A stretch of 64,000 nucleotides of DNA, taken from positions 1-64,000 of IMG/VR virus record IMGVR_UViG_3300005827_000042, one strand, 5' to 3'. Position numbers and translations under genes: made by a program. The notes beneath the pieces were generated by a model. It searched no databases and was not told the DNA's origin. It saw only the letters and a program-made list of their open reading frames with translations. Within the stretch, counting starts at the first letter, position 1. Each line of letters starts with the position of its first letter. The DNA is from a virus. Below, in pieces: positions 6,803-53,310 of the stretch.

Positions 6803-7114
6803 ATGAAGATCATTAATACCGCACAGGAACGACCGAAGAAGAAGACAGAATCACCTAAGAAACGTGGTGGAATTCCTCCAATCACGAAAGAAGAATTAGA
6901 TGATGTGAATAAGTGGATGGACGAACACAAAGATCATGGTGGATTCAAAACATCTGCTTGGTTCGGACTTCAATGGATGAGTTGTCCGTCATATGTAAAT
7001 GTAACTTGCGGATGTGATGCTACTTACATACGTGAACGGTATACGGACAAACCTGTCCGGTCATCTGGAGCATTGCAGAAACTGGGAACGAAAAATTCCG
7101 GGGGCAGGAATTGA
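6803..7114 (+). CDS. hypothetical protein
   Basis: 103-aa ORF, GGAG RBS (cttGGAGataaaATG), basic N-terminus. Confidence 0.5.
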   Translation: MKIINTAQERPKKKTESPKKRGGIPPITKEELDDVNKWMDEHKDHGGFKTSAWFGLQWMSCPSYVNVTCGCDATYIRERYTDKPVRSSGALQKLGTKNSGGRN

Positions 7115-31658: not shown

Positions 31659-32968
31659 TTCTTCCTCTTGTATTCTGCAATGAAATCTGAAAAAACCGAA
31701 ACGGTGTAATCAATCATTTCATCAGTAATATTCTGATGACACCCAATCCAGAAAGTATCTGTGGTTACAACATCCGCGTTATACAGATGGGTAGCTTTAC
31801 GATGCGGGGTAGTTCGGAAGGCCGGTTGGCGTAAAAGATTCCCACCAAACAGCATTCGAGTACCTATCTTATGGTCCTCAAGGTATCGGACTAACGTATT
31901 CCGATCAAACGGCAGGGCCTTCTTCAGCGTGAGCGCAAATCCGAACCAGGACGGCTCTGACTTCTTTGTAGCCAGCGGTAGGACAAAGTAGTCCTCAAAC
32001 TGGCACAATCCTTCAAGCAGCCTTGCGTGATTATGTTTACGCCGAGCAACGAAATCAGGAAGGCGACTCAACTGACTAATACCAAGCGCTGCCTGTAGGT
32101 CAGTGATTTTCATGTTATACCCAAGGCGGGAATAGGTATACTTGTGGTCGTACCCTGCTGGCAAGCCAGCTATAGCCGACTGAGAGAATCTGCGGCCACA
32201 AGTATTATCCTTTCCAGTATCACACCAGCAAGCCCTACCCCAGCCACGAAGACTCTCCACAACCTTCGCAATCATCGGTGAGTCTGTGATAACTGCCCCA
32301 CCCTCCCCCATCGTGATCTGGTGGGCCGGATAAAATGACAGGGTGGACATGTCCTCATAGAATGCAGGGGACGACCCATCAAACAAAGATCCAAGAGCGT
32401 CGCAGGAATCTCCGATCAGGAACAGGTTGTTGTCGTCCGCCACCTTCTTCATACCATCTACGTCATATGGGTTGCCTAGAGTGTGAGGGATGAAAATGGC
32501 CTTTGTCTTGTCAGAAACCGCCGCGTCTACACTATCAGGCGAGACATTGTATGTGGGGAAATCCACGTCACAGAGTACGGGGATAAGCCCGTTTTGTATG
32601 ATTCCAGACAAAGTAGTAGGGAATCCAACTGCGGCTGTGATAACCTCATCTCCAGGCTTGAGCGCCCGACTACCAAATTCCGGCTGACATACGGCCGAAA
32701 TAGCCAGCAGATTAGCAGAGCTACCAGAATTGGCAGGAATAGCAAACCGAGCATTAGGAGTAAACGCCCTACGTAGGTCTTGAGAAAATGCGTTCGCATA
32801 TTTACCTTCCGTGAACCACCCATCTAATGCCGCACCAACTACAGATAAAATGTCATCCTCTGTAATTTCTGCACCGGAGACGGGGATATAGTTTTCACCG
32901 GCCACAAACTCCGGTTTCTTTGGCATACCTGAATTTATTCTGTCAAGTATCTCTGCTTTAGTTATCAT
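31655..32968 (-). CDS. PLP/PMP-dependent sugar 3-dehydrase, E1/RfbH/AscC-like (DegT/DnrJ/EryC1 fold)
   Basis: 437 aa. SFYPAHQITMGEGG has His216 where aminotransferases carry the PLP Lys. Cys189, 247, 249 and 257 give C-X57-C-X1-C-X7-C. Also RALKPGDEVIT, GYDHKYTYSRLGYN and PSWFGF blocks. Confidence 0.8.
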   Translation of the reverse strand: MITKAEILDRINSGMPKKPEFVAGENYIPVSGAEITEDDILSVVGAALDGWFTEGKYANAFSQDLRRAFTPNARFAIPANSGSSANLLAISAVCQPEFGSRALKPGDEVITAAVGFPTTLSGIIQNGLIPVLCDVDFPTYNVSPDSVDAAVSDKTKAIFIPHTLGNPYDVDGMKKVADDNNLFLIGDSCDALGSLFDGSSPAFYEDMSTLSFYPAHQITMGEGGAVITDSPMIAKVVESLRGWGRACWCDTGKDNTCGRRFSQSAIAGLPAGYDHKYTYSRLGYNMKITDLQAALGISQLSRLPDFVARRKHNHARLLEGLCQFEDYFVLPLATKKSEPSWFGFALTLKKALPFDRNTLVRYLEDHKIGTRMLFGGNLLRQPAFRTTPHRKATHLYNADVVTTDTFWIGCHQNITDEMIDYTVSVFSDFIAEYKRKK

Positions 32969-33815
32969 TTAAGAACTTCTCCAATGCCTCATGGTAGTTG
33001 TAGTTGGGTGGGATGCTAGGGGCAAGGCAGGAGTTCAGTGGGCGGTTTGCAATACCTCTAACGTTGTTTACCGTCTTGGTAGGAATAATACTATCTCCAC
33101 ATAATCCAAACTTCTCCGCAATATCCATAGCAAATTGATATTTAGACACACACTCACTGCCGGATAGGTGGATTACACCACGAAGTCCAGCATCCATAAT
33201 ATGAACGGACGAAATTGCCAGATCGTCAGAATAAATCGGACTTACAAGCTGATCCTGCGGGGACTCAATACGCTTCCCAAGGGCAAGCTTGTCAATAATC
33301 TGATACGCATAGTTCTTTCTGGCCCATTCCCTTCCAAACACTGCCACTGTACGAATTACAGTACCACCGGCAGTAAGAACCTCACGTTCAGCGTTCATCT
33401 TCTGGATACCGTAGGTGTTTACAGGCATCGGACGATCGTATATGGTATATGGAGTAGATGAGCTACCGTCAAATACATAAGACGTAGAGTAGAAGATCAC
33501 ATTGGAATGTAGGCCCTGGGCAAGGCGAACTATGACCTTCACTGCTTCCACGTTAGTGCGATACGATTCAGAATTTATCTCACAATCATTCACGTGAGCG
33601 TTACCGCCAGCCAGGAACACAACATTGGGGCGCACTCGATTCATCACATCGACTATGGACTTGATACTATTCAAATCCATATACTCATACTCCCTACCCA
33701 TTGCTTGTGAGTAATATGTACCAACAGCATTGATACCTATGTGGGAGTTGAGTTGGTTTAGGATCGCTGAACCAACCAACCCAGATGCACCAACTACAAG
33801 CACACGTTTATCCAT
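32958..33815 (-). CDS. RmlD-like NAD(P)H-dependent 4-ketoreductase (extended SDR)
   Basis: Start moved to ATG 33815 (ATGGATAA overlap with the upstream stop). VLVVGASGLVGSA Rossmann motif, STSYVFDG, YGIQKMNAE (YxxxK). Confidence 0.75.
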   Translation of the reverse strand: MDKRVLVVGASGLVGSAILNQLNSHIGINAVGTYYSQAMGREYEYMDLNSIKSIVDVMNRVRPNVVFLAGGNAHVNDCEINSESYRTNVEAVKVIVRLAQGLHSNVIFYSTSYVFDGSSSTPYTIYDRPMPVNTYGIQKMNAEREVLTAGGTVIRTVAVFGREWARKNYAYQIIDKLALGKRIESPQDQLVSPIYSDDLAISSVHIMDAGLRGVIHLSGSECVSKYQFAMDIAEKFGLCGDSIIPTKTVNNVRGIANRPLNSCLAPSIPPNYNYHEALEKFLNDN

Positions 33816-34236
33816 GCTGAATCTCCCAATCATATGGTACAGAATTGTAGGGTATGCGGTATATCTGTCCATAAGGCTCACTAGCCTGAACCAGTATCAT
33901 CGATTCCATGGACAATCCCTTGAATCCTGCATACACCCCAGGTGGGATATGAACACTCAACATATTCTTATCGCTAAGGTAGATTTCTTCTATAGTACCT
34001 GAGGTCTTACCAGGACGCGCATCCCATAGAACCAATTTCACCTTACCAGACACACAGGTGAAATGTATCTCCTTCGTCTCATACCCATGCCACGCTTTGA
34101 TAGCGCCGTAGGCTACCGTAGTCATGTACACGTCTTTTACATCAAAGATCGGGGTGGCGACCTTCAATACACACCCACGCTCATCGGGTATAACAGTGCA
34201 CAAACTAACAATTACTCCAGATATGTCAACGGTCAT
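33808..34236 (-). CDS. RmlC-like cupin sugar epimerase/isomerase
   Basis: Start at ATG 34236 (GAGGA RBS). DERG.., AWHGYETKEIHFTCVSGKVKLVLWDARPG.., HIPPGVYAGF match the RmlC-type pattern. Confidence 0.65.
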   Translation of the reverse strand: MTVDISGVIVSLCTVIPDERGCVLKVATPIFDVKDVYMTTVAYGAIKAWHGYETKEIHFTCVSGKVKLVLWDARPGKTSGTIEEIYLSDKNMLSVHIPPGVYAGFKGLSMESMILVQASEPYGQIYRIPYNSVPYDWEIQHG

Positions 34237-34414
34237 TTTTATCCTCATCCACAAACTCAACTATATGTATTGCTGTGTGGTGTGTGCTCTTCTCGCAGTA
34301 ATTGATTCTCTGGTACTCACAGCCACAATATGGACAAGTAGTATTCTGTGGCATCTCTCTATAGATAAGCCCACACTTGTCGCACACATAGGCAGTGGCA
34401 GTGAATGGGGCCAC
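34226..34414 (-). CDS. small Cys-rich protein with rubredoxin-like knuckles
   Basis: 62 aa. CDKCGLIY..(x12)..CPYCGC, 6 Cys in total. Coupled to the flanking genes. Confidence 0.5.
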   Translation of the reverse strand: MAPFTATAYVCDKCGLIYREMPQNTTCPYCGCEYQRINYCEKSTHHTAIHIVEFVDEDKNDR

Positions 34415-34753
34415 CTAACTACTCCCGTCCAGGTGTTGGTTATACCCAGCGTGGTGTAAGCATACAAGCAGTGCCCCCATATTTGCTGAAGAGTCCTTGG
34501 CATAGGCATCATAATTCACTACGCCAGCCGGAGAGCCGCAGGTACACCACAGAGTCCAACCACGACTATTGAACACGTGCTTGAACATAAAGTGGTTATC
34601 GTATGGGGCACAGTTCACCAATCCGATTTCCATGTTGACAAATATATTTTTACTGCGGTTTACTCTAGTACCATCTTCCTCAAGCAGGACGGTATTCAAG
34701 TCACCGTGATGGCGAACTACCTTAATCTGTTTGTTACCAAAAATATTATCCAT
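34415..34753 (-). CDS. hypothetical Cys/His-rich protein
   Basis: 112 aa. WCTCGS (C70, C72) ... VCLHHAGY (C98, H100/101). Arrangement is only loosely Rieske-like. Confidence 0.5.
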   Translation of the reverse strand: MDNIFGNKQIKVVRHHGDLNTVLLEEDGTRVNRSKNIFVNMEIGLVNCAPYDNHFMFKHVFNSRGWTLWCTCGSPAGVVNYDAYAKDSSANMGALLVCLHHAGYNQHLDGSS

Positions 34754-35771
34754 TCATTCCTACCATCTTGAGCAAATCACACACACGCTGATCGTATGAA
34801 TGTACAGGGTACCCATCACTGCTAATTTCCCACACACCATCTTTTGCCTGACGACCAATACTGGCAATTGCCTGAGGGGTCTTGAGAAGCATCTCTACCT
34901 TGTACACAGCGTCTTCCACAGTATCAAACCCAACATAATCCACACCATCAGTGAAGAACAGTCCCATATCTGGAACATTGTTCACTACCGGGCACATACC
35001 CATTGCCATCAGTTCAAACACACGAGCATTCAAATCAAGCTCAGACGAGTAATTGATACCAATGGATGCCTGATTTTGCAGTGTGCGGTACTCATCAAAC
35101 ACAGGACCGTTTTCGTAGATGACAGAGATTCCCTTGGCACGAAGAGCCTGAACCAGCTTGGTACGGTGTGGGTATGCCATCCCAATACATGCGCAATCAC
35201 TGGTTTTTTCTTCTTGCACTGGGTAGTGTACAGTCGGATCGAACGCATAGGGCAGGAAATAGTCCCCAGGCATCTTGTAGTGGTTGTGCATATTAATGAA
35301 CATATCTGAAATTGACCGAGCGTGTTGGTAGTGCTGATTCAGACAGTGGGCATCGGTACCGATGGTAATTACCGGGCAGCTAACCCCAGGACGGGAAACC
35401 CAGTTACACATGGCATCTACAGCAATAACTAAATCTGGCTTCCAATCCCCCAACTGGAAAGCCACAGATGCAAACGGCACCAACTTATTGCAAGCCTCAA
35501 AACCCCCAGTAACGATATCCGGAGATACCGCATACTTGCTCAGAAGATTCATTCCACCACCCCACGGAATAAATGTACCAGTATAGGGGCCGGCCGTCTT
35601 CAAATCAATGTCATCACGTCGAAGGAACGCCCTACGCCAATAGGACGCCATCGACAGCGGGTACCACATCGAAAGAAGTAAAACTCGCTTCTTACTCTTT
35701 GATCCCCCACTTTTCAGCGAAGAGTTGCTTGTTTCTGTGAGTACGTTCGAGCCGTTCTGCTGTGTATCCAT
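34746..35771 (-). CDS. CgeB-like (Glyco_trans_1_2-type) GT-B glycosyltransferase
   Basis: Start set to ATG 35771 (GGAGG RBS, 5-nt spacer). C-terminal NARVFELMAMGMCPVVNNVPDMGLFFTDGVDYVGF pattern. Confidence 0.6.
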   Translation of the reverse strand: MDTQQNGSNVLTETSNSSLKSGGSKSKKRVLLLSMWYPLSMASYWRRAFLRRDDIDLKTAGPYTGTFIPWGGGMNLLSKYAVSPDIVTGGFEACNKLVPFASVAFQLGDWKPDLVIAVDAMCNWVSRPGVSCPVITIGTDAHCLNQHYQHARSISDMFINMHNHYKMPGDYFLPYAFDPTVHYPVQEEKTSDCACIGMAYPHRTKLVQALRAKGISVIYENGPVFDEYRTLQNQASIGINYSSELDLNARVFELMAMGMCPVVNNVPDMGLFFTDGVDYVGFDTVEDAVYKVEMLLKTPQAIASIGRQAKDGVWEISSDGYPVHSYDQRVCDLLKMVGMNG

Positions 35772-36372
35772 ATGTTCCTCCACCTACGTGTGCAATTGTA
35801 TTTTCAGGTAATACAGATAGCCGGTATCCCTTCTTCAGGGCGGTTGTGCTTATATCCACATCTTCAAAATCAGACGGGCTGTATCTGGTATCAAACCCAC
35901 CGGATTCTTCCCAAAACTTATTCGTTGCAATCAAAATATGACCATTCATATATGGAAATATTGTGTTACCAAACCGGTTCCATCCCACATCATGAGAGTG
36001 GCACTGTGCACCAAGCAAGATATATTCATCTTCTTCAAATCTACCTACAACCAAATCTACAAATTTCGGGTTCAGAATTCTAATGTCATTTGTGAGTAGG
36101 GCCACAACATCTCCAGTACACTGAGAGATGGCAAAATTCATTCCACCAATAAACCCAGAATTTTCCTTTGTCTTTACAACTCTAACGGGTAAGGATTTGT
36201 CCGCCACAAATAAAGCAAGGCCACGAGAAACTTGAGGGTCGGTGCTGCAATTATCTACTAAAACAATTTCATGGACGTGAGAACAGTAAGCACTCACGTC
36301 CATGAGAAGTTTACTGGTGTATGACCAGCCATTGTAAACCAGTATCGCTATGGAAATCTTTGGGCTATTCAT
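35692..36372 (-). CDS. family 2 (GT-A) glycosyltransferase
   Basis: Start set to ATG 36372 (MNSPKISIAILVYNGW..). VLVDNCSTD and ENSGFIGGMN motifs. Confidence 0.8.
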   Translation of the reverse strand: MNSPKISIAILVYNGWSYTSKLLMDVSAYCSHVHEIVLVDNCSTDPQVSRGLALFVADKSLPVRVVKTKENSGFIGGMNFAISQCTGDVVALLTNDIRILNPKFVDLVVGRFEEDEYILLGAQCHSHDVGWNRFGNTIFPYMNGHILIATNKFWEESGGFDTRYSPSDFEDVDISTTALKKGYRLSVLPENTIAHVGGGTYGYTAERLERTHRNKQLFAEKWGIKE

Positions 36373-36989: not shown

Positions 36990-37050
36990 TATGTCACTCT
37001 CCTAACACGAGTAATATACTACAACCTTCCCAATCATAACATTAATGTAT

Positions 37051-37091
37051 GATTAAAATAAATAGCCCCGTAAGTATCTACGAGGCTATTT
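37051..37091 (-). terminator. rho-independent terminator after the major capsid gene
   Basis: AAATAGCC..CGTA-loop-TACG..GGCTATTT hairpin (37060-37091), followed on the - strand by ATTTTAAT. Confidence 0.65.
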
Positions 37092-37108
37092 ATTGGGCTT
37101 GTCAAGTT

Positions 37109-38275
37109 TTACACAATGCGAGCGCAGGTCGTGGAGAGAGAGATCGACGCACGCTTATTATACACCGACTGAGCGCACTTGGCCTTGATAACAAGAGCCG
37201 TCTTCGCCCAAATCTGGAAGCTAATAGCGGTGCAGCCGGGGGCCAGATCACGGAAAGCCAGGGGGATCTGAGTAATCTTGTAGACCAGCGGTTCACCATT
37301 GTGAGTCATGCGCAGCGGATACAGAGCAGACTGCACAGCGCCTCCACCAACGTTGGTGATCGGGAAGTTCGCATCGGCCACAACCATCAGGCGACCAACA
37401 CCCGTGTAAACCTCACCAGCGAAGTTGAAGCCGGGGATAATGCGATCCTGCTTGGTGGCGTTGATAACCTGACTACCCTGGAAACCGAGCTGGAAGTAAC
37501 TGGACAGCATGGCCTGGATCATCTGCGGGTGGCCGAAGATGTGGGTAGGTTTGGCACAACCTTCAGCGAGGAAGGCATCGAATTCATTGGCCGAGAACGT
37601 TCCACTAATGCCGGATACCGCATTAGCATGGGCACCATTGGCCGCAGTAACCTGGGTGACAATACCATCGAAGTGCAGGGCGTTCACGCTATCGTCGCCG
37701 TTGACCAGCAGGTTGTCCCAGCCGTTCATGACCAGAGTAGCGCCAAGCTGCATTTCCTTGGCCTTCAGATCAGCGATCATACCCAGATAACCGGCACCAG
37801 CATCAGAGCCACCGGGCATACCTTCACCAGCCACGAAACCGGGGGCCAGTTTGGTGATACCATACCCAGCGCTCATCGAAGCGACGCTGTGCATAATATC
37901 AGAGATGCCGAGGGATTTCTTCGCGCCAATGTTCTTCAAATCGACGTAGGAATTGTCCCCATCGTGGGTATACTCTTCCGGACAGCCGTAGTCGGCAAAG
38001 CCGATGTACGAGCCGCTGACGGTGAAGTTCAGTTCGTTCAGTTCACGCCAGGTGTAGGTTTTCAGCCCGGTCATGATTTCAGGAATGGCCCGCCAGGTGT
38101 TGAGTTCCTCGCACATCGTAACCAGTTCCGTGGTATCCAACGGATTCGGGAACTGAGCAGCGAAGTCAGCGGGGAGTCCAGCATTCGCAATAACGGGATC
38201 GGCGGCGCGGCTAACAAAAGCCTGCTCATTAGGGGCATCAGCGCCAAGGTTCAGTACAACTTCAGCATTAGGCAT
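37109..38275 (-). CDS. major capsid protein (HK97-fold type)
   Basis: 388 aa. Follows the protease/scaffold gene, has strong codon bias with higher GC, and is followed by a terminator. Assignment by composition and position. Confidence 0.8.
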   Translation of the reverse strand: MPNAEVVLNLGADAPNEQAFVSRAADPVIANAGLPADFAAQFPNPLDTTELVTMCEELNTWRAIPEIMTGLKTYTWRELNELNFTVSGSYIGFADYGCPEEYTHDGDNSYVDLKNIGAKKSLGISDIMHSVASMSAGYGITKLAPGFVAGEGMPGGSDAGAGYLGMIADLKAKEMQLGATLVMNGWDNLLVNGDDSVNALHFDGIVTQVTAANGAHANAVSGISGTFSANEFDAFLAEGCAKPTHIFGHPQMIQAMLSSYFQLGFQGSQVINATKQDRIIPGFNFAGEVYTGVGRLMVVADANFPITNVGGGAVQSALYPLRMTHNGEPLVYKITQIPLAFRDLAPGCTAISFQIWAKTALVIKAKCAQSVYNKRASISLSTTCARIV

Positions 38276-38334
38276 GGTATATCTCCTTGATTGATCTTCG
38301 CGCCGCCAATTGGCTTAACCGCTGTTTGAATGGT

Positions 38335-41973: not shown

Positions 41974-43488
41974 TTATCTCGTCAGGGCTACAAACGGAAC
42001 CCTACTCCACCGCTTGAAGATGGGCGATAACCAGCGAATGGCCCCACTCGCTGAAGTCACTCTATCATCATGAAGCATGATTGTGAAATCGTCCACCTGT
42101 TCCGTAAACTGTTTATTCCAGAACTCATTCTCAATCATGTACATATTACCAGAATTGGCATAACCAAACCAAGTATATGCTTCCTGAACCCGATCCGTTG
42201 GTAGTTGTCGCTCAACCTTGTAATATTTCAACTCTGGATACTTGGGATTATCTCGGAAGAATAACTCGATTTCTGCACACTGATTCTTTCCACCAGACCC
42301 AGGCTCTTGTTCGATAACCACTGTAACGTTAGGACCATCCTTGACGGCAGTCTCAGCGATAATATCTTTCAGTTTGTCCCATGACCACCACCCTCCCACC
42401 TGATCCATAATGCAATACTTTGGATCGCGCTCGTCAGACACGAGAACCCGAGTACCTACCGCCTCGTCTGGATCATTCAACTTTCCATTCTTTTGTTTCT
42501 TCTCGGTACCAGCCATGTCCCAATACCTGCATTGCTTCCCCCACTTCCACCCTTCCGGGACATCAGTGACTTTCTGTATCTTGGAACTATCACCGATTCG
42601 CCCACCGTCCTCCACAAAGTTACCATTCAACTCACGCTCACGGAGTCCACCAGAATGGTAGGTAGCTAACAGGGTGGCGTAAAACATCGGATCAAGATTA
42701 TCCGAATTCTCCTGAGTGGAAAGATGGAAAGTCTGAACAAAGTCATCCACATCCTGACCCAGCAGGCCAAATGCGTCAATGGCATCCTGCGGAATTTCTT
42801 TTTCGATGAAGAATTTGTAAGACCAGTGGGATGGCGGTTTGGCGGTTTGGGTACACCATGCCTGGGGATTGTTTCCAATACGAATGGATGGAATGATGAG
42901 TTTCCAGGCCATGCCCGTCTCATCTCTACCACTCTCGTCATACCATACCCAGTTCAGGTTAGGGCCACGAGCGCTGTCCGGATCTTTCAACCCTTTGCAG
43001 TATACGCGGGCACCATTCAGAAACACCATAACAAACGGTTTAGTTGGTTGCCACGCCTCACTCTCACGATTACGTTGAGATGGAACTACCATCTCCCAAG
43101 GTATCCACTCTTTGAATTCCGGCCATGTAGAAAGACAGAAGTTTTCAAAGTCAGGATTGATGACCGCCCCATTCTGTCCTTGCCTGATTTTCTTTATAGC
43201 TTTTTGAGCGCCTGAACAACTTTTTCCGCTACCCCGACCCCCATAGAACATGGCAAATTTTGCTTCAGACTTTACGAATGCTTCCTGCTCAGGTTTGGGG
43301 TTGTATCTACGTCCCCTCCGAGAAAGAAAGTAGCCACGCTCATCAATGGGCCACTCAAGTGCCCGTTGTGCCATGGCTTCTTTTGGTATCTCAGGTATCT
43401 TGATACCTCGTGCTTGTAACTCTCCAGCTACAAGCACGAGCATTTTCTTTTCTTCAGCGCTAAGTGGTTTTATCGTCGCTAGGGGCAT
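41974..43488 (-). CDS. terminase large subunit
   Basis: Walker A YGGRGSGKS, Walker B-like WVWYDESG. 504 aa. Confidence 0.9.
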   Translation of the reverse strand: MPLATIKPLSAEEKKMLVLVAGELQARGIKIPEIPKEAMAQRALEWPIDERGYFLSRRGRRYNPKPEQEAFVKSEAKFAMFYGGRGSGKSCSGAQKAIKKIRQGQNGAVINPDFENFCLSTWPEFKEWIPWEMVVPSQRNRESEAWQPTKPFVMVFLNGARVYCKGLKDPDSARGPNLNWVWYDESGRDETGMAWKLIIPSIRIGNNPQAWCTQTAKPPSHWSYKFFIEKEIPQDAIDAFGLLGQDVDDFVQTFHLSTQENSDNLDPMFYATLLATYHSGGLRERELNGNFVEDGGRIGDSSKIQKVTDVPEGWKWGKQCRYWDMAGTEKKQKNGKLNDPDEAVGTRVLVSDERDPKYCIMDQVGGWWSWDKLKDIIAETAVKDGPNVTVVIEQEPGSGGKNQCAEIELFFRDNPKYPELKYYKVERQLPTDRVQEAYTWFGYANSGNMYMIENEFWNKQFTEQVDDFTIMLHDDRVTSASGAIRWLSPIFKRWSRVPFVALTR

Positions 43489-45228: not shown

Positions 45229-45283
45229 AGCATTTCTCCTTATGTTGCTATTGTATCAAAGTGACAGAATTATGTCAAGTGAC

Positions 45284-45481
45284 TTAATGTGGTTTGCTGC
45301 TCCACACACTCATCTTCGAGCACATTTGACAGAACACCACCACATGAGGTGTGTTAGGTGAGTGGGTACAGAGATGCTCTGTTTCCTTACGACAGATTGG
45401 GCAATACTGTAAGCTGATCCAGTTATCCAGAAGTGTGCGCCTTCTCCCAGAATCCGCTGTACTCAAGTTCAAATTGTTCAT
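45284..45481 (-). CDS. hypothetical zinc-ribbon protein
   Basis: 65 aa. CPIC...CQMC. GGAG RBS with 7-nt spacer. Overlaps the upstream ORF by 59 nt. Confidence 0.4.
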   Translation of the reverse strand: MNNLNLSTADSGRRRTLLDNWISLQYCPICRKETEHLCTHSPNTPHVVVFCQMCSKMSVWSSKPH

Positions 45482-45653
45482 TGTCTAACTCCTCGTCACA
45501 CTCATTAAGTCTCACAAGTTGAGTACCAAAACCTTGGTGCCGCACTCTGGTACCGTATTTGGCACATACGTGGGGTTCATCACCTGCCTGCTCGTCTTCT
45601 TTCGGGTGCAGGAACTTGCAATACCGATTACAAAACTTCGGACTGTTCTTCAT
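45423..45653 (-). CDS. hypothetical protein (first gene of the leftward operon)
   Basis: Start set to ATG 45653 (GAGGA RBS) rather than the track's GTG at 45668. Confidence 0.45.
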   Translation of the reverse strand: MKNSPKFCNRYCKFLHPKEDEQAGDEPHVCAKYGTRVRHQGFGTQLVRLNECDEELDNEQFELEYSGFWEKAHTSG

Positions 45654-45746
45654 AGTTCGATCCTCCACACAAGAGTAATACTACATCCATAGTGGAATTC
45701 TACTATTAGAGTTAGATGAAAATAAGGTGTGCGCCAGTCGGCGCGT

Positions 45747-45759
45747 TTACACCGTGTAA
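45747..45759. promoter_or_regulatory. perfect copy of the palindrome TTACACCGTGTAA upstream of the leftward operon
   Basis: Read directly. Adjacent to the GCGCC-agtc-GGCGC hairpin (45731-45744). Confidence 0.55.
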
Positions 45760-45787
45760 ATTGTGTGTTCCAGGGGGGAAGAGCAGA

Positions 45788-45867
45788 AATACTTTTTTGT
45801 GCGCTTAATACTTAATTAACTATTAAATACTTAATATATCTATTAATACTTAAATTAACTACTTAAT
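45788..45867. repeat. AT-rich iteron array, AATACTT repeated with exact 19-bp phasing
   Basis: AATACTT starts at 45788, 45807, 45826 and 45845, plus TACTTAAT at 45860. Lies in the divergent intergenic region 45654-46013. Confidence 0.7.
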
Positions 45868-46013
45868 GTTAATTAATAGATAACTTCCTTTCGTTTTCAC
45901 GAACTCGATTTTATTTACAAATTCGATTTCTGCATAGGGTTAAAATCCCATTCTTAGAAAACACTAATGTGCTGATGTTTTTCTGTGGTAAGATTCTTGT
46001 AAGGAGAATTACT

Positions 46014-48112: not shown

Positions 48113-48702
48113 TGCCTAACGGGATACACCACGACAATGTTCATAAAGCAGGATGGGCTGTAATAGGCCCATCCTCTTTATTTGCCATACTGATAAACCC
48201 ATACATTGGATTTGGGATGATAGCGGGATATGCACTTGGCAGGTACTTAAATCCGGATGCTGACTTGGTTGGGATATCCTATGCTGAAGGGATGGCTCTG
48301 AGACACTTCAGTGTTCTTGGTTGGGTATGGGTAGGATACTGGACACCATATGGAGCGGCATTTAAAAGATTGCATCGGTCAGTATGGACTCACTTCCCAT
48401 TCTTATCCACTATCATACGGTACATCTATCTTCTGTGGTGGCTACCGTTGGTAGATATCAAGTGGACTGGGGAGTTTATGGCCTTCATCATCTCCATGTG
48501 GTTTGCGACATCTCTATCTGATATGGGTCATTACGTCTCTGACAAGTGGGAAAAGTTCTTTAGCAAAATATCTGGAACTTCTAACCAATCTATAAGTAAA
48601 TCCAGTAATAATCAGAGGGATAATAGGAAAAATACAGGAAGAAAAAGGAAAAATAATAATGAACGTAGAATGGGCAATAGAACCTCCTACCACAGATCCT
48701 AA
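48112..48702 (+). CDS. polytopic membrane protein (weak DUF2227-like His/Asp pattern)
   Basis: 196 aa. HHDNVH, NPDADL and HRSVWTHFP motifs. Basic C-terminal tail. Family assignment is from memory only. Confidence 0.45.
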   Translation: MPNGIHHDNVHKAGWAVIGPSSLFAILINPYIGFGMIAGYALGRYLNPDADLVGISYAEGMALRHFSVLGWVWVGYWTPYGAAFKRLHRSVWTHFPFLSTIIRYIYLLWWLPLVDIKWTGEFMAFIISMWFATSLSDMGHYVSDKWEKFFSKISGTSNQSISKSSNNQRDNRKNTGRKRKNNNERRMGNRTSYHRS

Positions 48703-48862
48703 CTCTGGAATGAGCAAACAGTGTATTGTGCTTACCAACAGAGGCTATTACAACACCGGATATTACTCATCCCGCTCTGGTATGTGGTATCTGGACGGCC
48801 CAACCATACGTGGAGAACGGGTAATACGCTGGATGAGTGGGGTATGTATAGATGGGAAATAG
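48659..48862 (+). CDS. hypothetical protein
   Basis: 67-aa ORF overlapping the upstream gene by 44 nt. Confidence 0.4.
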   Translation: MNVEWAIEPPTTDPNSGMSKQCIVLTNRGYYNTGYYSSRSGMWYLDGPTIRGERVIRWMSGVCIDGK

Positions 48863-49201
48863 TACGGATTTTGACCTGTAAGGGGGACATTCAAAGAACG
48901 GGGGAATGGTAAATGAAAATTTCTACCAACGGTCGAGTGTAAAAACTGGATTTGCTGCGTTCCCATATCCGCCCGACGTCCGCCGTGTGTGCTGTCTAGA
49001 GTACCCCTGTATGGCCACAGGAACGCCTGTAAGACGTCCAATACTGCGCATGGGTATAACGCTATGGTAGTGACGTAGTGACAATGGAGAAGTGGGGAAT
49101 GGGGGGAGCTGGTCTAGGTTTATGAACTGGTGAACGAATGTAGATCAGCGACAACCCGGGTAAACAGGTAAACGAGTTTTCAAAATTGCCTTGATTTACT
49201 C

Positions 49202-49230
49202 TTGACACATTGTCACTAAGTGACTAAACT
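49202..49230 (+). promoter_or_regulatory. sigma70-like promoter TTGACA-N17-TAAACT
   Basis: -35 TTGACA at 49202-49207, 17-nt spacer, -10 TAAACT at 49225-49230. The -35/spacer overlaps the inverted repeat TGACA-CAT-TGTCA (49203-49215). Confidence 0.5.
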
Positions 49231-49236
49231 CAGTCC

Positions 49237-49848
49237 CGTTCGACCAAGGCAGAGAATGTAGGCCAGCGAACAGATTGGAGATAGATCATAGAACGGTAAT
49301 TAGGGGGGAAAGGTGGTACGCCTAACACCAGAGTTAGGTGATTGACATTCCGCATGATTAGCAAAAAGTACATCCCAGTACAGGATTGTACGCAATGAGT
49401 AACCAATAACCCGTTAGGTATAATGTAAACTTTTATCCCTGATAATAAAAGCGATTGGGAACGGGTAGGGAATGAATGTAAGAGAATAGGCGCTACTATG
49501 CCGCGATAACATTCCCTGTAAGCAGTCTCAAAGTGTATGAGAACTGGTACGGCTGGAAACAACTAATCTGAAAATACTTAGTGTGCAGGGACATCCCTTA
49601 GTGAAGAAATCCTAAGCGGCTCTGAGTCCTACGTCTTTCATCCCTTGCAAGTGTTGACTTCCTTGCGTAAGGTGCGAGCCGCATAGCAAAGCGGCATCGG
49701 CTGAATACATCGCGCTAGTAATGACAGGTATCACTGGTAACTGTCAGGAACGCGCAGGGTAACGTGAGACAAATACTAAGTAATGCGGGCTATGGTGGCA
49801 AGTGAAATGTCTAGATCATGGTACGTTTGACATGATCTAGGCATTTTT
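49237..49848 (+). ncRNA. candidate ~600-nt non-coding transcript (unclassified)
   Basis: Bounded by the promoter above and the terminator at 49811-49848. By hand reading, no + strand ORF longer than ~15 codons. Multiple local helices. Confidence 0.3.
49811..49848 (+). terminator. rho-independent terminator
   Basis: CTAGATCATG-N10-CATGATCTAG (10-bp perfect stem) followed by GCATTTTTGG. Confidence 0.7.
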
Positions 49849-50178
49849 GGCACACTTGCAATGGCATAAGAAATACGCGCTTCCTGATAAGTAACGGCAG
49901 ATACGGTATGTCCCCCCATGCTAGTTATGGGTGGTTGTTATCTGTGCATAGTATGCATTCTTATGTCTGATTATCTCTTTTCTCTTGTCCAGTGGGTGGG
50001 GATGGGAGATAACACTATGGCAATGCAGATGACAGTACATGTGATCTTTTCATCTGTCACGCTACATCATTACACATGGCATGGGTGAATACTAGCTACA
50101 CCCCTGCCATTATAGCCAAGGGTGAATTGCGCCTATCGATCTTATCAACACTAAGTAACATACCTATAGGAATCAGCC

Positions 50179-50451
50179 ATGAAAACCGTCAAAGTAACGT
50201 ATAACCGCTTTTTGTACCTTGGGTTCTTCGTGTCAGTGTACCGGCACCAAGAGGATAACCGTGTCTGGTTTGAAACGTATGTCGAGGCTGTCAGCCTCAA
50301 CGATGACGGGAACTACGTCATTCAGCCCGTTACCCCGGAACCGGTGAACGTTACTGCGACTGTAAGCAGGCGCGACTCCAAGGCGCAGTGCGATCTGTCC
50401 ATGTGCTCTCTGGCTACCGGGATCACGTGGATTGACATGAACCTCAAGTAG
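50179..50451 (+). CDS. hypothetical protein
   Basis: 90-aa ORF with a weak AGGAA RBS, isolated within non-coding DNA. Confidence 0.45.
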   Translation: MKTVKVTYNRFLYLGFFVSVYRHQEDNRVWFETYVEAVSLNDDGNYVIQPVTPEPVNVTATVSRRDSKAQCDLSMCSLATGITWIDMNLK

Positions 50452-50632
50452 TCACCCTTGAAGCTAAGGTGCCCCATACCTACTTGAAATGGGTCTGGTC
50501 CTTGTATTACAATGCAGGCGCATACTACCCATTTGAGATGCGCTTGATGCTCTCCAGCCTCTAACAGGTTTCCGAGGGAGAGATGCGCCTGCTATATAGA
50601 TGGTTTGCCAGGGGCCATTTGTAACCCCTGGC

Positions 50633-50691
50633 AGGCTATCAAAAGGGTATAGGCTTTCCATACCATATAGCCTACACCCTTTTGATAGCCT
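50633..50691. repeat. long inverted repeat (16-bp perfect arms plus inner 6-bp helix)
   Basis: AGGCTATCAAAAGGGT (50633-50648) pairs with ACCCTTTTGATAGCCT (50676-50691). Preceded by the hairpin GCCAGGGG/CCCCTGGC (50607-50632). Confidence 0.65.
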
Positions 50692-50724
50692 TACGTTACC
50701 GGCTATAGAAGGAAGGAGATTATC

Positions 50725-50970
50725 ATGATTGCAGATTGCTTGACGAAAAAGACTCGTGCAAAATCCCTGTCAGTTAGAGGGCGCAAGTCGTTTGTTGATT
50801 GGGCGGCCCTGCCGCCCGGAGAGTTCCGTGATGATGAAGTGAAGAATGTTCCCCTCCCCAAAGCAACGCTGGCCGGACATGAGCGTCCCGCCCGCAGAAC
50901 AAAGTCATGGGGAAGCGGTTCCCGCTTTATTAAGCGGGATTTGGAGAAGGCCAAGTTCTATGCTGACTGA
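50725..50970 (+). CDS. hypothetical basic protein
   Basis: 81 aa. Strong RBS AAGGAGATTATCATG. Confidence 0.5.
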   Translation: MIADCLTKKTRAKSLSVRGRKSFVDWAALPPGEFRDDEVKNVPLPKATLAGHERPARRTKSWGSGSRFIKRDLEKAKFYAD

Positions 50971-51127
50971 TGTTGCAATCGCCATCATCACGGGCTTCGG
51001 CCCACTTGTGTTGTTCTACGCATTGTTCCGTTGGATGTTGGCTACTCAATCCCCCGAAGTGGGGGAAAAGGTGGCCGAACAAATCATCAATCGCTGGGTT
51101 GATAAAGCCCGCGAAGAGAGGAGATAA
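50960..51127 (+). CDS. small membrane protein (55 aa)
   Basis: Start re-assigned to ATG 50960 inside the track ORF. Sequence MLTDVAIAIITGFGPLVLFYALF.. forms a TM helix. Confidence 0.4.
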   Translation: MLTDVAIAIITGFGPLVLFYALFRWMLATQSPEVGEKVAEQIINRWVDKAREERR

Positions 51128-51128
51128 C

Positions 51129-51251
51129 ATGAAGTGGTTCATCGTTCTGGTCGCATTGGTTATTATCGTGGCGATCGTTATCGCCCTGTTCCCGCAGGGC
51201 AATACCGTCACGACGAATGGCGGTCTGGTCGAATTCTTGACCGGACGCTAG
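51129..51251 (+). CDS. small membrane peptide (40 aa)
   Basis: GGAGA RBS. MKWFIVLVALVIIVAIVIALF.. hydrophobic helix. Confidence 0.35.
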   Translation: MKWFIVLVALVIIVAIVIALFPQGNTVTTNGGLVEFLTGR

Positions 51252-51331
51252 GTCTAGCTCTATCCCACCCATCCTATCCTACCATCATAGTTGTTCAATC
51301 CACCCGCCAAGGGTGGATAAGGAGAAAAATC

Positions 51332-51661
51332 ATGAAAAACACCAAGATCGAAACGCTCAAGGCTCAGAAAGACGCCCTGGAGCAGAAGCTCGCCGCCATG
51401 AACGCCAAGATCGCCGCCGCTGAAACGGCTACCAAGAAGGTGGAAATCAAGGTCAGCGCCGATGTTCGCAAGAAGCTCGTCGGGCTGATTGAGGCCGACG
51501 CCAACCGCACTTCGGTGCGCGAAAATGGATACAAATGGCCATGCTTCATGGCCTCAAAGGTGTTCTACGCTGCCCGAAGCGCGGGCAAACCGATCGATCC
51601 GGCGGCCATGTCGGATGGCACCGCGCTGGCTCTGGCCAAGGCTTATGGCCTTATGAAGTAG
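51332..51661 (+). CDS. hypothetical protein
   Basis: Start at ATG 51332 (AAGGAG RBS), 109 aa. N-terminal coiled coil. GC-rich codon usage. Confidence 0.5.
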   Translation: MKNTKIETLKAQKDALEQKLAAMNAKIAAAETATKKVEIKVSADVRKKLVGLIEADANRTSVRENGYKWPCFMASKVFYAARSAGKPIDPAAMSDGTALALAKAYGLMK

Positions 51662-51673
51662 GTCGGAATTGTG

Positions 51674-51705
51674 ACGGCAGGGCAGGATAAAATGCCCCCT
51701 GCCGT
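51674..51705 (+). terminator. stem-loop after the 51332-51661 gene (no clear U-tract)
   Basis: ACGGCAGGG-N14-CCCTGCCGT, 9-bp perfect stem, 12 nt after the stop. Confidence 0.4.
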
Positions 51706-52057
51706 TAGCCCCGCACAGACCAGCCGCCAAGTGGCCGGGGTGGGTCGCGCTAATGGGTCTGTCTAGCAACAAAAGGAGGATATATGCGTTGATTAGCTTG
51801 TTCTGCCTTGCATGGGGCAGTGGAAACAATGCACAAGGCACGGGAATAGCCCTGGAAAATCCCAAATTTATAACCCGCGCTAGGGTCATAACTGCGCGGG
51901 ATTAGAAATGTAATCACGGGCAGTATTGGGAGTTCAAAAGCTCCACATTCCATTTCGAGGGTGGATACTGTCTCTAGGCAGTTGGTGTGGTCTACCTTAG
52001 ACCTTAAACCGTTGGGGGACGGCCCCATAAAAACAACGGCCAACCGTCTCTAATAAA

Positions 52058-52090
52058 CTACTCATGTTGATTGCACATCTACATGAGTAG
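52058..52090 (+). other. 9-bp perfect hairpin upstream of the 52117 gene
   Basis: CTACTCATG-N15-CATGAGTAG. Confidence 0.5.
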
Positions 52091-52116
52091 AATTGTACAT
52101 AATAAAGGAGATTATC

Positions 52117-52491
52117 ATGAATACTGACGTAGTAATCGTTACCCGCCACGAAACTTTGGTTAAGTGGCTTAATAATCATGGAATTTTTGGTCCTGTCTTC
52201 GCTCAGGTAACGGAGCAGGATATTCGTGGGAAAGATGTTTACGGCATCCTCCCTATGTGGTTGGCCGCACACGCCAACAGCGTAACCGAAGTTAGTATGC
52301 CTGGGCTTCCTCTTGAAGCCCGTGGGAGAGTGAATGGCGGTGATTACACCGTCGAGCAGATGGATGAATGGGGAGCAACCCTCAAAACATTTGCGATCTT
52401 CTCGAAAGATGAGCTTGACCGAGCAGTTCCGGGTGGAAATTGCCATCTGGAGCAGTCTAAATGGGGTGCCATTCGTGGAATTTTGTGGTAG
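52117..52491 (+). CDS. Csx16-like (VVA1548-family-like) small protein - tentative
   Basis: Start at ATG 52117 (AAGGAGATTATCATG). VVIVTRHETLVKWL..GKDVYGILPMWLAAHA..MPGLPLEARG resembles my memory of the Csx16 pattern (ITRH.GA..W....GD.V.G.LP..LAA....L.LP...RG). Confidence 0.35.
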   Translation: MNTDVVIVTRHETLVKWLNNHGIFGPVFAQVTEQDIRGKDVYGILPMWLAAHANSVTEVSMPGLPLEARGRVNGGDYTVEQMDEWGATLKTFAIFSKDELDRAVPGGNCHLEQSKWGAIRGILW

Positions 52492-52502
52492 GAGGAGTGA
52501 GT

Positions 52503-52808
52503 ATGTCAGACTACGACGAAGAAGATGCCAAAAAAAGAGCTAGTATTATTGTTCGTGCTTGCCAGCTTTGCAAGGGCAAGTGGCTGGAGGTCGGTGCGGC
52601 TGTTGGCACGAGCGATGACCCAACTACGTACGAACTCAACAACCTCACTGACAGCGAGGCATTACTGGAGTGGGGCGGTGTAAGAAGGGTGGTTGATCGT
52701 AATACGGTGTTTGATGTGAATATTGCGTGCAATATTGCAATGCTCTTATATCACACAGACTTCACGGAAGAGCAGGTGATAGATATGATATCTGCGCGAA
52801 CTGATTAA
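52503..52808 (+). CDS. hypothetical protein
   Basis: Start at ATG 52503 (GGAGG RBS), 101 aa. Confidence 0.5.
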   Translation: MSDYDEEDAKKRASIIVRACQLCKGKWLEVGAAVGTSDDPTTYELNNLTDSEALLEWGGVRRVVDRNTVFDVNIACNIAMLLYHTDFTEEQVIDMISARTD

Positions 52809-52852
52809 CTCCACTGATGTGGAGATATTATATTCAATAAGGAGAATTGAAA

Positions 52853-53074
52853 ATGTTGGTTGCCTTGATTGCCAAGATTGAAAAGAAAATGGCTGGAATG
52901 CTTCATACCCCGGCCAACTACGCCAAAGTGTTGGCGCAGTTATCGGTATCGGAGTTGGACACCATTTTGGTGGGGGTACCGGAGAACCCCACCTTAGTGG
53001 ACGATGGCCTGTTGACTGCCATCGAAGTCCTCACCCCTCTGTGGGAGAAGGGAGGTGTTTGGTCCACGTTCTAG
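52853..53074 (+). CDS. hypothetical protein
   Basis: Start at ATG 52853 (AAGGAG, 8-nt spacer), 73 aa. Confidence 0.5.
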   Translation: MLVALIAKIEKKMAGMLHTPANYAKVLAQLSVSELDTILVGVPENPTLVDDGLLTAIEVLTPLWEKGGVWSTF

Positions 53075-53176
53075 TGGGCTAATCAACTTCTAATATTTTA
53101 CAGTTGTGATCGGGTTATCATAGTGATGTAACTGGATACCGTCAGGACGAAGACGAGTACCAGAACAAGTAATAAA

Positions 53177-53206
53177 TTACACGGTGTAAGAGATTACACC
53201 GTGTAA
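53177..53206. promoter_or_regulatory. two perfect copies of the palindrome (TTACACGGTGTAA and TTACACCGTGTAA) 4 nt apart, immediately 5' of the tRNA
   Basis: Copies at 53177-53189 and 53194-53206. The tRNA starts at 53210. Confidence 0.6.
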
Positions 53207-53209
53207 CTC

Positions 53210-53282
53210 AGCCCTATAGCTCAATGGTTAGAGCGTCATCCTTATAAGGTGCGGGTTGTGGGTTCGACTCCCACTAGGGCTA
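53210..53282 (+). tRNA. tRNA, anticodon UAU (Ile, AUA codon)
   Basis: Hand-folded cloverleaf. Acceptor AGCCCTA/TAGGGCT, D arm GCTC-AATGGTTA-GAGC. Anticodon arm TCATC-CTTATAA-GGTGC with a 27:43 mismatch. T arm GTGGG-TTCGACT-CCCAC. Discriminator A, no encoded CCA. Confidence 0.8.
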
Positions 53283-53310
53283 CAAAGAACACATTATTGA
53301 AGGAGGTGAT

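Follow-up and report, generated by a model that had tools for sequence, protein, structure and literature searches.

A gene-free stretch in an uncultured lytic-type phage as a candidate regulated promoter, long untranslated leader and terminator ahead of an accessory cassette

The largest non-coding stretch in the sequence window of this uncultured lytic-type phage (~68 kb), positions 48863-50178, is gene-free on both strands. The window, the whole 64-kb stretch of DNA that was analysed, is otherwise ~94% coding and holds ~6% non-coding DNA. The region sits in a rightward early/accessory block that runs from 45969 to the window end and then across the contig ends to ~12.8 kb. A first-pass annotation had proposed a promoter-to-terminator unit here for a structured non-coding RNA of ~600 nt. 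A rightward unit of ~610 nt is plausible from the quality and placement of its motifs, and its RNA is best read as an extended leader, or an early transcript subject to attenuation, rather than a compactly folded, ornate RNA. The region and the predicted transcript are as follows.

48863..50178, no strand assigned: ORF-free non-coding stretch, from stop counts, codon-usage LLR, no SD-led ORF and protein searches
49237..49848, + strand: inferred untranslated transcript or leader of ~610 nt, from the promoter and terminator positions

The region has no open frame with the codon usage of the genome, a ribosome-binding site and homologues, and the initial judgement that neither strand holds a credible ORF stands. 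Each + frame contains 32-36 stops and each - frame 20-23, and codon-usage log-odds over 48870-50130 are negative in six of six frames and positive in the flanking genes. ORFs of at least 8 codons are preceded by SD matches of at most 4-5 nt, while nearly all neighbouring genes carry an AAGGAG-type SD 6-7-mer. Small ORFs do exist: those on the + strand reach 54 aa (48906-49070), 56 aa (49918-50088) and 42 aa, longer than the ~15 codons first given for the longest + strand frame and none of them coding-like, and those on the - strand reach 92 and 110 aa, both with TTG starts. These ORFs, and the frequency of tiny orphans among phage early genes, would favour missed genes, whether for small proteins, with atypical start codons or with a stop codon that is recoded. 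This is barely conceivable against the codon-usage scores, the stop density and the weak SDs; Pfam and PHROG are empty for both - strand ORFs, and the 110-aa ORF found 0 matches among 1.84 billion protein representatives. No protein-level similarity of the region to 105 related loci was found either. Stop-codon recoding was considered as a candidate in its own right and rejected, each of the three stop codons being common in every frame. ARAGORN detected no tRNA or tmRNA in the region, and the closest tRNA lies 3.3 kb away.

Transcription would start from a predicted sigma-70-type promoter accompanied by two operator-like elements.

49202..49230, + strand: sigma-70-type promoter TTGACA-17-TAAACT, matching at 10/12 positions, with an A/T-rich stretch upstream
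49212..49224, no strand assigned: perfect 5-3-5 palindrome GTCAC-TAA-GTGAC in the promoter spacer, the sole perfect match in the window
49068..49082, + strand: tandem half-sites TAGTGAC-G-TAGTGAC, ~130 nt upstream of the promoter

The near-consensus promoter is present as first described, and its hexamers, its spacer within 16-18 nt, its position in non-coding DNA and its orientation with the genes are those of a sigma-70-type site. A perfect -35 hexamer with a 17-nt spacer occurs at two sites in 64 kb, the other (45278-45250) pointing leftward in a divergent intergenic region. Of the ten matches of at least 10/12 in the window, three are on the gene strand within its ~6% non-coding DNA; around 49202-49230, promoter-like sites are no more numerous than in shuffles. 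The consensus score is informative only if the host uses sigma-70-type promoters, and the strong AAGGAG ribosome-binding sites are compatible with such a host without proving it. The spacer palindrome looks like an operator, and inverted repeat I2 pairs it with 49068-49086. Within 49068-49218 lie three of the window's seven TAGTGAC sites, and the tandem is a possible auxiliary operator. An exact-pattern scan of IMG/VR with the promoter-operator sequence gave no match. The strand composition of the region (G>C, A>T) agrees with that of co-directional genes and, like the unique palindrome and the TAGTGAC tandem, speaks for a leader.

The unit is closed by a predicted intrinsic terminator.

49805..49848, + strand: intrinsic-terminator-like hairpin and T5, with 16-nt arms and a 10-nt loop (I4, 94% complementary)

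This hairpin is real and stronger than the 10-bp stem with T5 originally claimed. Its arms (49805-49820 and 49831-49846) form a hairpin of dG -31 kcal/mol (z -6.95) directly before the U tract, and the first three T of the T5 (49844-49848) are able to pair in the extended arm. The stem is only moderately G+C-rich. An outer helix, CAAGTG/CACTTG, may lengthen it, and no compact hairpin with a T-run ranks above this element on the + strand within the rightward gene block. It was not listed by the automated promoter/terminator scan, which has a loop limit of 8 nt. The strength of the terminator would suffice for a stand-alone RNA gene, a point against a leader.

The terminator is separated by 330 nt, with two copies of a clade motif, from the next gene, a 90-aa orphan ORF (ATG 50179) with a weak ribosome-binding site and a weak codon signal; that a leader should serve such an ORF is a further point against it. 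No + strand promoter-like site of at least 9/12 lies between terminator and ATG, so the ORF would depend on read-through. From 50179 to 53074 extends a cassette of small accessory genes that includes a Csx16-like protein, and part of this neighbouring cassette has a G+C content of 50-54% versus 45%. A second unit of the same design is found here, with a 10/12 promoter (50484-50513) leading to a hairpin and T-run (~50640-50690) and a gene at 50725; the presence of this second promoter-hairpin-gene unit (50484-50725) is in keeping with a leader.

The size of ~600 nt, the phage context and the framing by promoter and terminator would fit a large ornate RNA of the GOLLD, ROOL, HEARO or OLE kind or a self-splicing intron, and the 615-nt fold that includes the terminator has a z of about -2.9 (20 shuffles). 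The z is equal on the opposite strand, however, and the fold signal arises entirely from the terminator hairpin. Without it, the z of the RNA body (49237-49800) is -0.84 on either strand, where the genome background averages -1.26 and -1.55; this is weaker than the average 564-nt piece of the same genome and no better than shuffles. Windows of 150 nt over the region have a mean z of -0.51 on both strands (genome background -0.66 and -0.57), and the only outlying one is the terminator window. The MFE and centroid structures of the 615-nt fold differ widely, and 49237-49800 shows neither stability nor a well-defined fold beyond what its composition gives. The small helices that had been picked out by eye are all in the sequence, but they are no more than chance, the 150-nt windows being close to background.

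Rfam 15 cmscan at gathering thresholds over the whole window returned only a tRNA, and a search of 48600-50500 with all 4227 families, permissive filters and E<=10 gave two chance matches only, a Plasmodium snoRNA (E 7) and CRISPR-DR (E 9.5). No covariance model of GOLLD, ROOL, HEARO, OLE or raiA was matched, nor were the group I/II intron models (RF00028, RF00029 and related), and no split exons are present at the locus because the flanking 67-aa gene is intact relative to its homologues. The ORF-poor stretches of two relatives, L033 and L036, likewise contain no known Rfam family. Since no homologue of the core was found in the collections searched, its helices have no covariation support, and the tRNA expected beside a GOLLD/ROOL-class RNA is not adjacent. 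That class, which the first-pass annotation had brought up, is thus unsupported, and an ornate RNA or intron is very improbable; promoter, terminator and hand-spotted helices together are no evidence for one, and the main value of the check is negative. No riboswitch, leader peptide beside the terminator or antiterminator was detected, and no convincing alternative pairing. A length of 570 nt is long for a leader in which none of these is detectable.

We compared the region with 105 related phage loci (L001-L105, ~1.3 Mb). With TerL as anchor, 120 homologues were listed and six looked up, and a profile scan gave 67 IMG/VR loci and, outside the compared set, 5 GTDB loci (L107-L111), of which only L111 (TerL 29%) extends far enough upstream of TerL. 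The contigs of the closest relatives (TerL 81-83%) end short of the region. Anchoring on the 694-aa phrog_1735 protein yielded 28 loci with no similarity to the region, the DUF2227 protein yielded one relative (58% identity) on contigs of at most 1.6 kb that do not include it, and the 90-aa ORF, as an orphan, yielded no homologue. The homologue search proposed at the outset found no counterpart of the 600-nt core in INPHARED or PLSDB (blastn, distant mode) and nothing significant for the region in L001-L105 by nhmmer, blastn or tblastx (best tblastx E 2.2).

Homology to relatives stops at 48865. Compared with its homologue of 70 aa in L029-L031, the upstream 67-aa gene is full-length, and similarity does not extend past its stop codon. 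L029 lacks ~4.3 kb between this homologue and the tRNA, and just one relative has a contig that crosses the junction, where it lacks the accessory cassette 50179-53074. The region forms the left border of the segment absent from L029, which accords with a leader. Two relatives, L036 (TerL 63%) and L033 (TerL 65%), have ORF-poor stretches at the equivalent place that are unrelated in sequence to the region, full-length alignments being not above dinucleotide shuffles. In L036, a left-edge block shared with the region precedes a TG-extended promoter (10/12, gene strand), and no genes are called over 1258 nt, an arrangement that likewise accords with a leader, and an Acb2/Tad1-family protein is encoded in this neighbourhood. 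The ORF-poor stretches of L033 have no sigma-70-like site on the gene strand, so the promoter architecture is not uniformly conserved, which weighs against a leader.

Only the edges of the region are common with relatives. The edge elements, together with two kinds of small repeat, are listed here.

48891..48942, + strand: left-edge block TCAAAGAA..GGAA..AAATGAAAA with a 9-codon mini-ORF, similar to L036
50080-50091 and 50117-50128, + strand: clade motif CAWGGGTGRATA, CAWGGGTGRAT(A), in two copies 50-100 nt upstream of ATG 50179
48875, 49026 and 49515 (span 48875..49522), + strand: CCTGTAAG in three copies; six in the window versus 1.8 expected, three of the six here
49945..49957, no strand assigned: 6-1-6 palindrome TGCATA-G-TATGCA, as initially reported; the surrounding 150-nt fold windows are unremarkable

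Of the whole region, the left-edge block alone can be aligned to a relative, with 71% identity over 52 ungapped nt to L036 2691-2640 (- strand; pairwise E 1.9e-5). Its mini-ORF (ATG 48913 to TAA 48940-48942) reads MKISTNGRV, and that of L036, equal in length, reads MKNFIIRLV. Since most of the differences affect second codon positions, the block is probably conserved at the nucleotide level. An exact-pattern scan of IMG/VR for it gave one chance match, an ordinary ribosome-binding site in a Firmicutes-type prophage. The clade motif occurs five times in the window versus 1.75 expected and four times in L033 versus 0.44 expected, and is absent from all other loci; its gene-strand copies all lie in non-coding DNA in one orientation. 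In L033 a tandem is likewise positioned upstream of a gene (1278, 1230). The sequence CACCC (50100-50104) lies between the two copies here, and two gene-strand GGGTGRATA copies form hairpins directly upstream of a ribosome-binding site. The tandem GGGTGRATA module had no match in an exact-pattern scan of IMG/VR.

The position of the region, exactly at the homology break and at the edge of a variable cassette of 4.3 kb, raises the possibility that it is functionless filler left by decay or recombination, in which pieces of early genes, deleted or turned into pseudogenes, persist at a mosaic junction together with a leftover promoter and terminator. The orphan core, its random-like stop density and folding, the unrelated stretches of the relatives and the deviating G+C content of part of the neighbouring cassette are consistent with filler. 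It is nevertheless unlikely: tblastx against the related loci revealed no frame-shifted protein remnants, the rest of the window is almost fully coding, and neither the terminator nor the promoter with its palindrome looks eroded, both being of high quality. Useless DNA is normally purged from phage genomes.

The same promoter and terminator could instead define a stand-alone functional early RNA of ~610 nt that evolves fast and is not compactly folded, for example a decoy, sponge or anti-defence RNA. ICP1 and phage K transcripts provide a precedent (PMC7567579, PMC9241854), two relatives have ORF-poor stretches at the equivalent place, and the neighbours are of counter-defence type (Csx16-like here, Acb2/Tad1-family in L036). 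Such an RNA is possible but not likely, as the core is unconserved even among phages with common flanking genes and has no fold signal. The longest complementarity of 49237-49848 to the rest of the window is 12 nt, at chance level, leaving no longer antisense target in 64 kb. A broader form of the idea, rather doubtful, is that in a clade of ~60-70-kb phages the early operon always has, behind a DUF2227 module, a locus for a non-coding RNA driven by its own promoter, with its edges (the mini-ORF block of 52 nt and the GGGTGRATA motif) kept and its body of 0.3-0.6 kb replaced between lineages. Complete turnover of the body between kept edges would be expected of an RNA engaged in an arms race, for instance one that serves as a decoy or acts against host defences, in the company of counter-defence genes such as those for the Csx16-like and Acb2/Tad1-like proteins.

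ORF-free DNA with a strong predicted promoter could also act at the DNA level, for instance as a transcription-activated origin in which a G-run transcript forms an R-loop or primer, as in ColE1 RNA II or T4/T7. Four of the window's 41 runs of G>=5 lie on the + strand within 48882-49308, and TATYCACCC, the reverse complement of GGGTGRATA, resembles a DnaA box. Yet we observe neither iterons nor tandem repeats, apart from a single 8-nt repeat in two copies, and an AT-rich unwinding element is absent, with G+C of 40-52% in most 60-nt windows and 33-37% in only three. The replication genes, which are part of the rightward block, lie ~18 kb downstream along the genome, and a better candidate exists in the AT-rich ATACTTAA array of 19-bp period at 45787-45867, in a divergent intergenic region where cumulative GC skew is lowest. 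An origin at 48863-50178 is therefore quite improbable. A G-quadruplex or R-loop was considered separately and set aside: although G runs are in excess here, only one of the four G5+ runs is not upstream of the promoter, the other three falling outside the transcript.

We favour, tentatively and at a little short of even confidence, a lineage-specific regulatory spacer made up of a regulated promoter, a lengthy leader that is not translated (or an early transcript cut short by attenuation) and a terminator before the accessory cassette. The host-type (sigma-70) promoter at 49202-49230, with the operator-like palindrome in its spacer, would fire rightward to yield an untranslated RNA of ~610 nt, and most transcripts are predicted to end at the stable hairpin and T5 of 49805-49848. 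Read-through, perhaps regulated, would cross the 330 nt with the two GGGTGRATA copies and enter the small accessory genes of 50179-53074, the Csx16-like gene included.

Known systems resemble this arrangement to different degrees. GOLLD (RF01998) and ROOL (RF03087) share the size (~600-800 nt), the phage or prophage context and a tRNA in the vicinity, but the RNA predicted here has no covariance-model match, no excess stability and no conserved family, and its tRNA is 3.3 kb off. ColE1 RNA II and the T4/T7 origins share a promoter-driven non-coding transcript (~550-600 nt, inferred here) in ORF-free DNA with G runs nearby, but here the G runs are mostly on the upstream side of the promoter, an AT-rich unwinding element is lacking and the better origin candidate is at 45.8 kb, with its 19-bp-period repeats. 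In lambda tL1/tR1 (N-nut) and HK022 put, as here, a host-type early promoter leads through an untranslated stretch to an intrinsic terminator before accessory or delayed-early genes, and an operator, putative in the present case, is embedded in the promoter. The leader proposed here greatly exceeds those in length, nothing resembling nut (boxA/boxB) or put was recognised, and the window yielded no gene for an N- or Q-like antiterminator. The most abundant transcript of ICP1, of ~800 nt and unknown function, comes from an ORF-less space of ~1 kb (PMC7567579), and phage K (Kayvirus) also has lncRNAs (PMC9241854). Like the candidate, these come from ~1 kb without genes in a lytic phage, are of similar size and belong to no Rfam family (PMC7567579, PMC9241854), but they were defined by RNA-seq abundance, while the candidate is known from sequence, and INPHARED blastn gives no match and hence no sequence relationship. 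The ICP1 RNA lies between gp139 and gp140, beside the lysis cluster, whereas the region here is in the early/accessory block. If the 610-nt RNA is made and important, it would join this small, unexplained set of lncRNAs from gene-free spaces of lytic phages and add to it an uncultured lineage in which the non-coding RNA adjoins candidate counter-defence genes.

The window makes up nearly all of a ~67.9-kb phage contig from a JGI metagenome. Its genes are arranged as two divergent arms starting at ~45.2–46.0 kb. The leftward arm carries MazG, TerL (41974–43488), the portal, a sugar-modification cluster and the structural genes, and the rightward arm carries small early or accessory genes and, across the contig ends, runs on into a replication module (3.4–12.8 kb) encoding UvrD-like and DnaB-like helicases, a family A DNA polymerase, UDG, a RecA-like protein and endonuclease VII. 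There is no close cultured phage, the portal's sole INPHARED match being to a Thermus phage at 29% identity. Within the structural arm, a DegT/DnrJ aminotransferase and a glycosyltransferase (31655–35783, −) occupy a place where relatives (L032) carry dTDP-sugar pathway genes, which suggests that the phage encodes glycan modification. Two opposite-strand ORFs at 37049–38290 (+, 413 aa, no Pfam match) and 37109–38275 (−, 388 aa) overlap almost completely at 51–53% G+C, above their surroundings, and just one can be a true gene. At 7111–7614 (+), an HNH-AP2 homing-endonuclease-like gene lies directly upstream of the family A DNA polymerase gene and overlaps its start. The ORF-free region lies 2.9 kb inside the rightward arm, where the following features are found.

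Features of the region and the adjoining cassette
48863–50178: ORF-free region
49202–49230, rightward: predicted sigma-70-type promoter, TTGACA-17-TAAACT
49237–49800, rightward: body of the predicted RNA
49805–49848, rightward: terminator hairpin
50179–50451 (+): 90-aa ORF with a weak RBS (AGGA)
50452–50724: second non-coding stretch, with a 10/12 promoter at 50484–50513 and then a bidirectional hairpin and T-run at ~50640–50690
50725, rightward: 81-aa gene with a good RBS, directly after that stretch
51662–52116: 455 nt without credible ORFs upstream of the Csx16-like gene, G+C above the genome average, with several hairpins and one GGGTGGATA motif copy
52117–52491 (+): Csx16/Cas_VVA1548-like protein (Pfam PF09652, 2e-13; PADLOC Csx16, 3e-13) in the early/accessory cassette
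53173–53210: 17-bp perfect hairpin directly before the tRNA
53210–53283: tRNA-Ile, anticodon TAT

Over 48700–50300, stop codons number 32–36 in each + frame and 20–23 in each − frame, and TAA, TAG and TGA are all in use at roughly the frequency that base composition predicts, so a recoded gene is excluded. When codon usage was scored by log-odds, with 31 long ORFs of the window as the training set, the flanking genes came out positive in their correct frame and 48870–50130 came out negative in every one of the six frames. The best Shine-Dalgarno match for any ORF in the region is 4–5 nt, with AAGGAG-type 6–7-mers at nearly all neighbouring genes. Neither of the − strand ORFs (92 and 110 aa, both beginning with TTG) matches a Pfam or PHROG family, and the 110-aa ORF has no relatives among 1.84 billion protein representatives. 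These results uphold the first-pass annotation of the region as ORF-free; its estimate of ~15 codons for the longest + frame was too low (+ strand ORFs of 54 and 56 aa are present), which leaves the non-coding conclusion unaltered, and there is only the slightest chance of missed protein coding. Comparison with ~1.3 Mb of related phage DNA by tblastx gave a best E of 2.2, and the lack of detectable pseudogene remnants argues against the region being filler, a reading we consider distinctly unlikely. At the right boundary, the 90-aa ORF has no homologue besides itself in 5.8 billion clusters and a positive codon score over its first third only, and its status as a gene is doubtful; were it non-coding too, the gene-free DNA would extend to 50724, ~1.86 kb in all.

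The near-consensus promoter and strong intrinsic terminator described at first pass are both present as sequence features. The promoter scores 10/12 against a consensus that may not be the host's, and the density of promoter-like sites around it shows no excess over shuffles. Ten sites reach at least 10/12 in the whole window, and three of these fall in the ~6% of the window that is non-coding and point with the genes (45278, leftward; 49202 and 50484, rightward); a perfect −35 together with a 17-nt spacer is found at just two of the ten, 45278 and 49202. The spacer of the 49202 promoter holds a perfect GTCAC-N3-GTGAC palindrome, the sole one in the window, and a tandem pair of TAGTGAC sequences is found 130 nt upstream, a layout typical of an operator-controlled promoter. 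The terminator exceeds the 10-bp stem and T5 first described, having 16-nt arms, a 10-nt loop and then T5 (ΔG −31 kcal/mol, z −6.95), and it ranks best among compact hairpin-plus-T-run sites on the + strand of the rightward arm.

Folding of the predicted RNA was compared with the genome background. The 615-nt unit of body and terminator hairpin has a z of about −2.9, with the same value on the opposite strand; with the hairpin removed, the body has a z of −0.84 on both strands, against means of −1.26 (+) and −1.55 (−) for 29 background pieces of 564 nt taken from this genome. Windows of 150 nt over 48700–50300 have a mean z of −0.51 on both strands against backgrounds of −0.66 and −0.57, the terminator window being the sole outlier, and the MFE and centroid structures of the 615-nt unit lie 32 kcal/mol apart. 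The local helices listed at first pass all exist, but they are no more than any 600-nt sequence of such composition offers. Rfam 15 gave no match to the region at gathering thresholds and two chance matches only with permissive filters (E ≤ 10), and GOLLD, ROOL, HEARO, OLE, raiA and group I and group II introns are therefore ruled out. The large structured RNA suggested at first pass, with GOLLD/ROOL as the comparison, thus finds neither a family nor a body folded beyond the genome background; a new large structured RNA is without support here, and the evidence is against the predicted RNA being structured. We regard an ornate structured RNA as highly improbable. An antisense regulator was also rejected, since no complement to other parts of the window exceeds 12 nt, which is chance level.

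A DNA-level element such as a replication origin is very unlikely, since iterons and an AT-rich block are both missing from the region, and an AT-rich ATACTTAA repeat array lies elsewhere, at the cumulative GC skew minimum (45787–45867). This array, with four to five ATACTTAA(T) repeats at a 19-bp period inside the divergent intergenic region 45229–45968, looks like iterons or an origin, or else a regulatory array. Runs of at least five G show local enrichment in the region (four of the 41 fall inside 430 nt), but all except one of these four are upstream of the promoter.

The ~600-nt core between promoter and terminator is an orphan: the homologue search proposed at first pass found nothing by blastn in INPHARED or PLSDB, nor did nhmmer and blastn of the region among related loci L001–L105. 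For the DUF2227 protein encoded upstream, a single relative was found, 58% identical; on its short contigs, L029–L031, the DUF2227 gene and a 67/70-aa gene are syntenic with the window. DNA homology ends at window position 48865, the exact left edge of the region, and beyond the break these contigs carry ~420 nt of small ORFs and then a tRNA 75% identical to the window tRNA-Ile(TAT); therefore ~4.3 kb of the window (48863–53200) is absent from this relative, the only one whose contig spans the junction from 67-aa gene to tRNA. The segment, opposite L029 1148–1632, comprises the region and ~8 small genes between the 67-aa gene and the tRNA, and part of it is richer in G+C (50–54%) than the genome as a whole (45%). 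Scanning with a TerL profile brought in a further 67 IMG/VR loci and five GTDB loci (L107–L111). The TerL relatives form a graded series in which the closest (81–83% identical) have contigs that end short of the region, and those that reach it are L033/L034 (65%), L036 (63%) and L037 (65%). Two of them have, at the corresponding position of the early operon, ORF-poor stretches of their own.

ORF-poor stretches of TerL relatives
L033 3143–2497 and 1927–1174
L036 2788–1531, 1258 nt without a called gene

Aligned over their full length with the window, these stretches score no better than shuffles. The L036 stretch has a TG-extended promoter on the gene strand (10/12), and such a promoter is absent from the L033 stretches. 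A few genes upstream, the early region of L036 codes for a member of the Acb2/Tad1 hairpin family (4141–4416, −), a family of anti-CBASS/anti-Thoeris sponges.

Two pieces are common to the region and the relatives' stretches. Window 48891–48942 aligns without gaps to L036 2691–2640 (71% identity, pairwise E 1.9e-5), and both copies hold an SD-like purine run and a 9-codon ORF ending at the identical position; because most of the substitutions between them are at second codon positions, it is probably the nucleic acid that is constrained. The second piece is a motif, CAWGGGTGRAT(A) or CAWGGGTGRATA, above shuffles in the window and L033 and absent from all other loci.

Copies of the motif
Window 50080, 50117 and 51308, and 51956 with one mismatch; + (gene strand)
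L033 1278, 1230 and 247, and 2739 with one mismatch; − (gene strand)

These gene-strand copies share one orientation and all lie in non-coding DNA upstream of genes, with a tandem pair ~40–100 nt upstream of a start codon in both phages. In two cases (51298–51316; L033 ~237–262) the motif makes up the 3′ side of a perfect hairpin that closely precedes a ribosome-binding site. CAWGGGTGRATA could be a translational or transcriptional operator; its reverse complement is DnaA-box-like.

We tentatively prefer, at a little short of an even chance, to read the region as a leader or attenuated transcript. The region would be a spacer with a regulatory role, bordering a variable accessory cassette on its left side. 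In it an operator-bearing host-type promoter would produce an untranslated RNA of ~610 nt ending at the strong terminator, and transcripts reading through would run past the GGGTGRATA motifs and on into the 90-aa ORF and what follows it. A stand-alone, early functional lncRNA is a serious rival, if an unlikely one, with published precedent in ICP1 and phage K (PMC7567579, PMC9241854). The leader or attenuator is favoured over it because there is no other promoter-like site between the terminator and 50179, and because the next unit repeats the design of promoter, hairpin with T-run and gene (50484–50725). Further along the cassette, the Csx16-like gene could be a counter-defence gene, Csx16 being a type III CRISPR-associated accessory protein. 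The ORF-free unit holds up as real, and it is an orphan; its kind is already known from the early promoters, leaders and terminators of phages and from their ORF-less transcripts.
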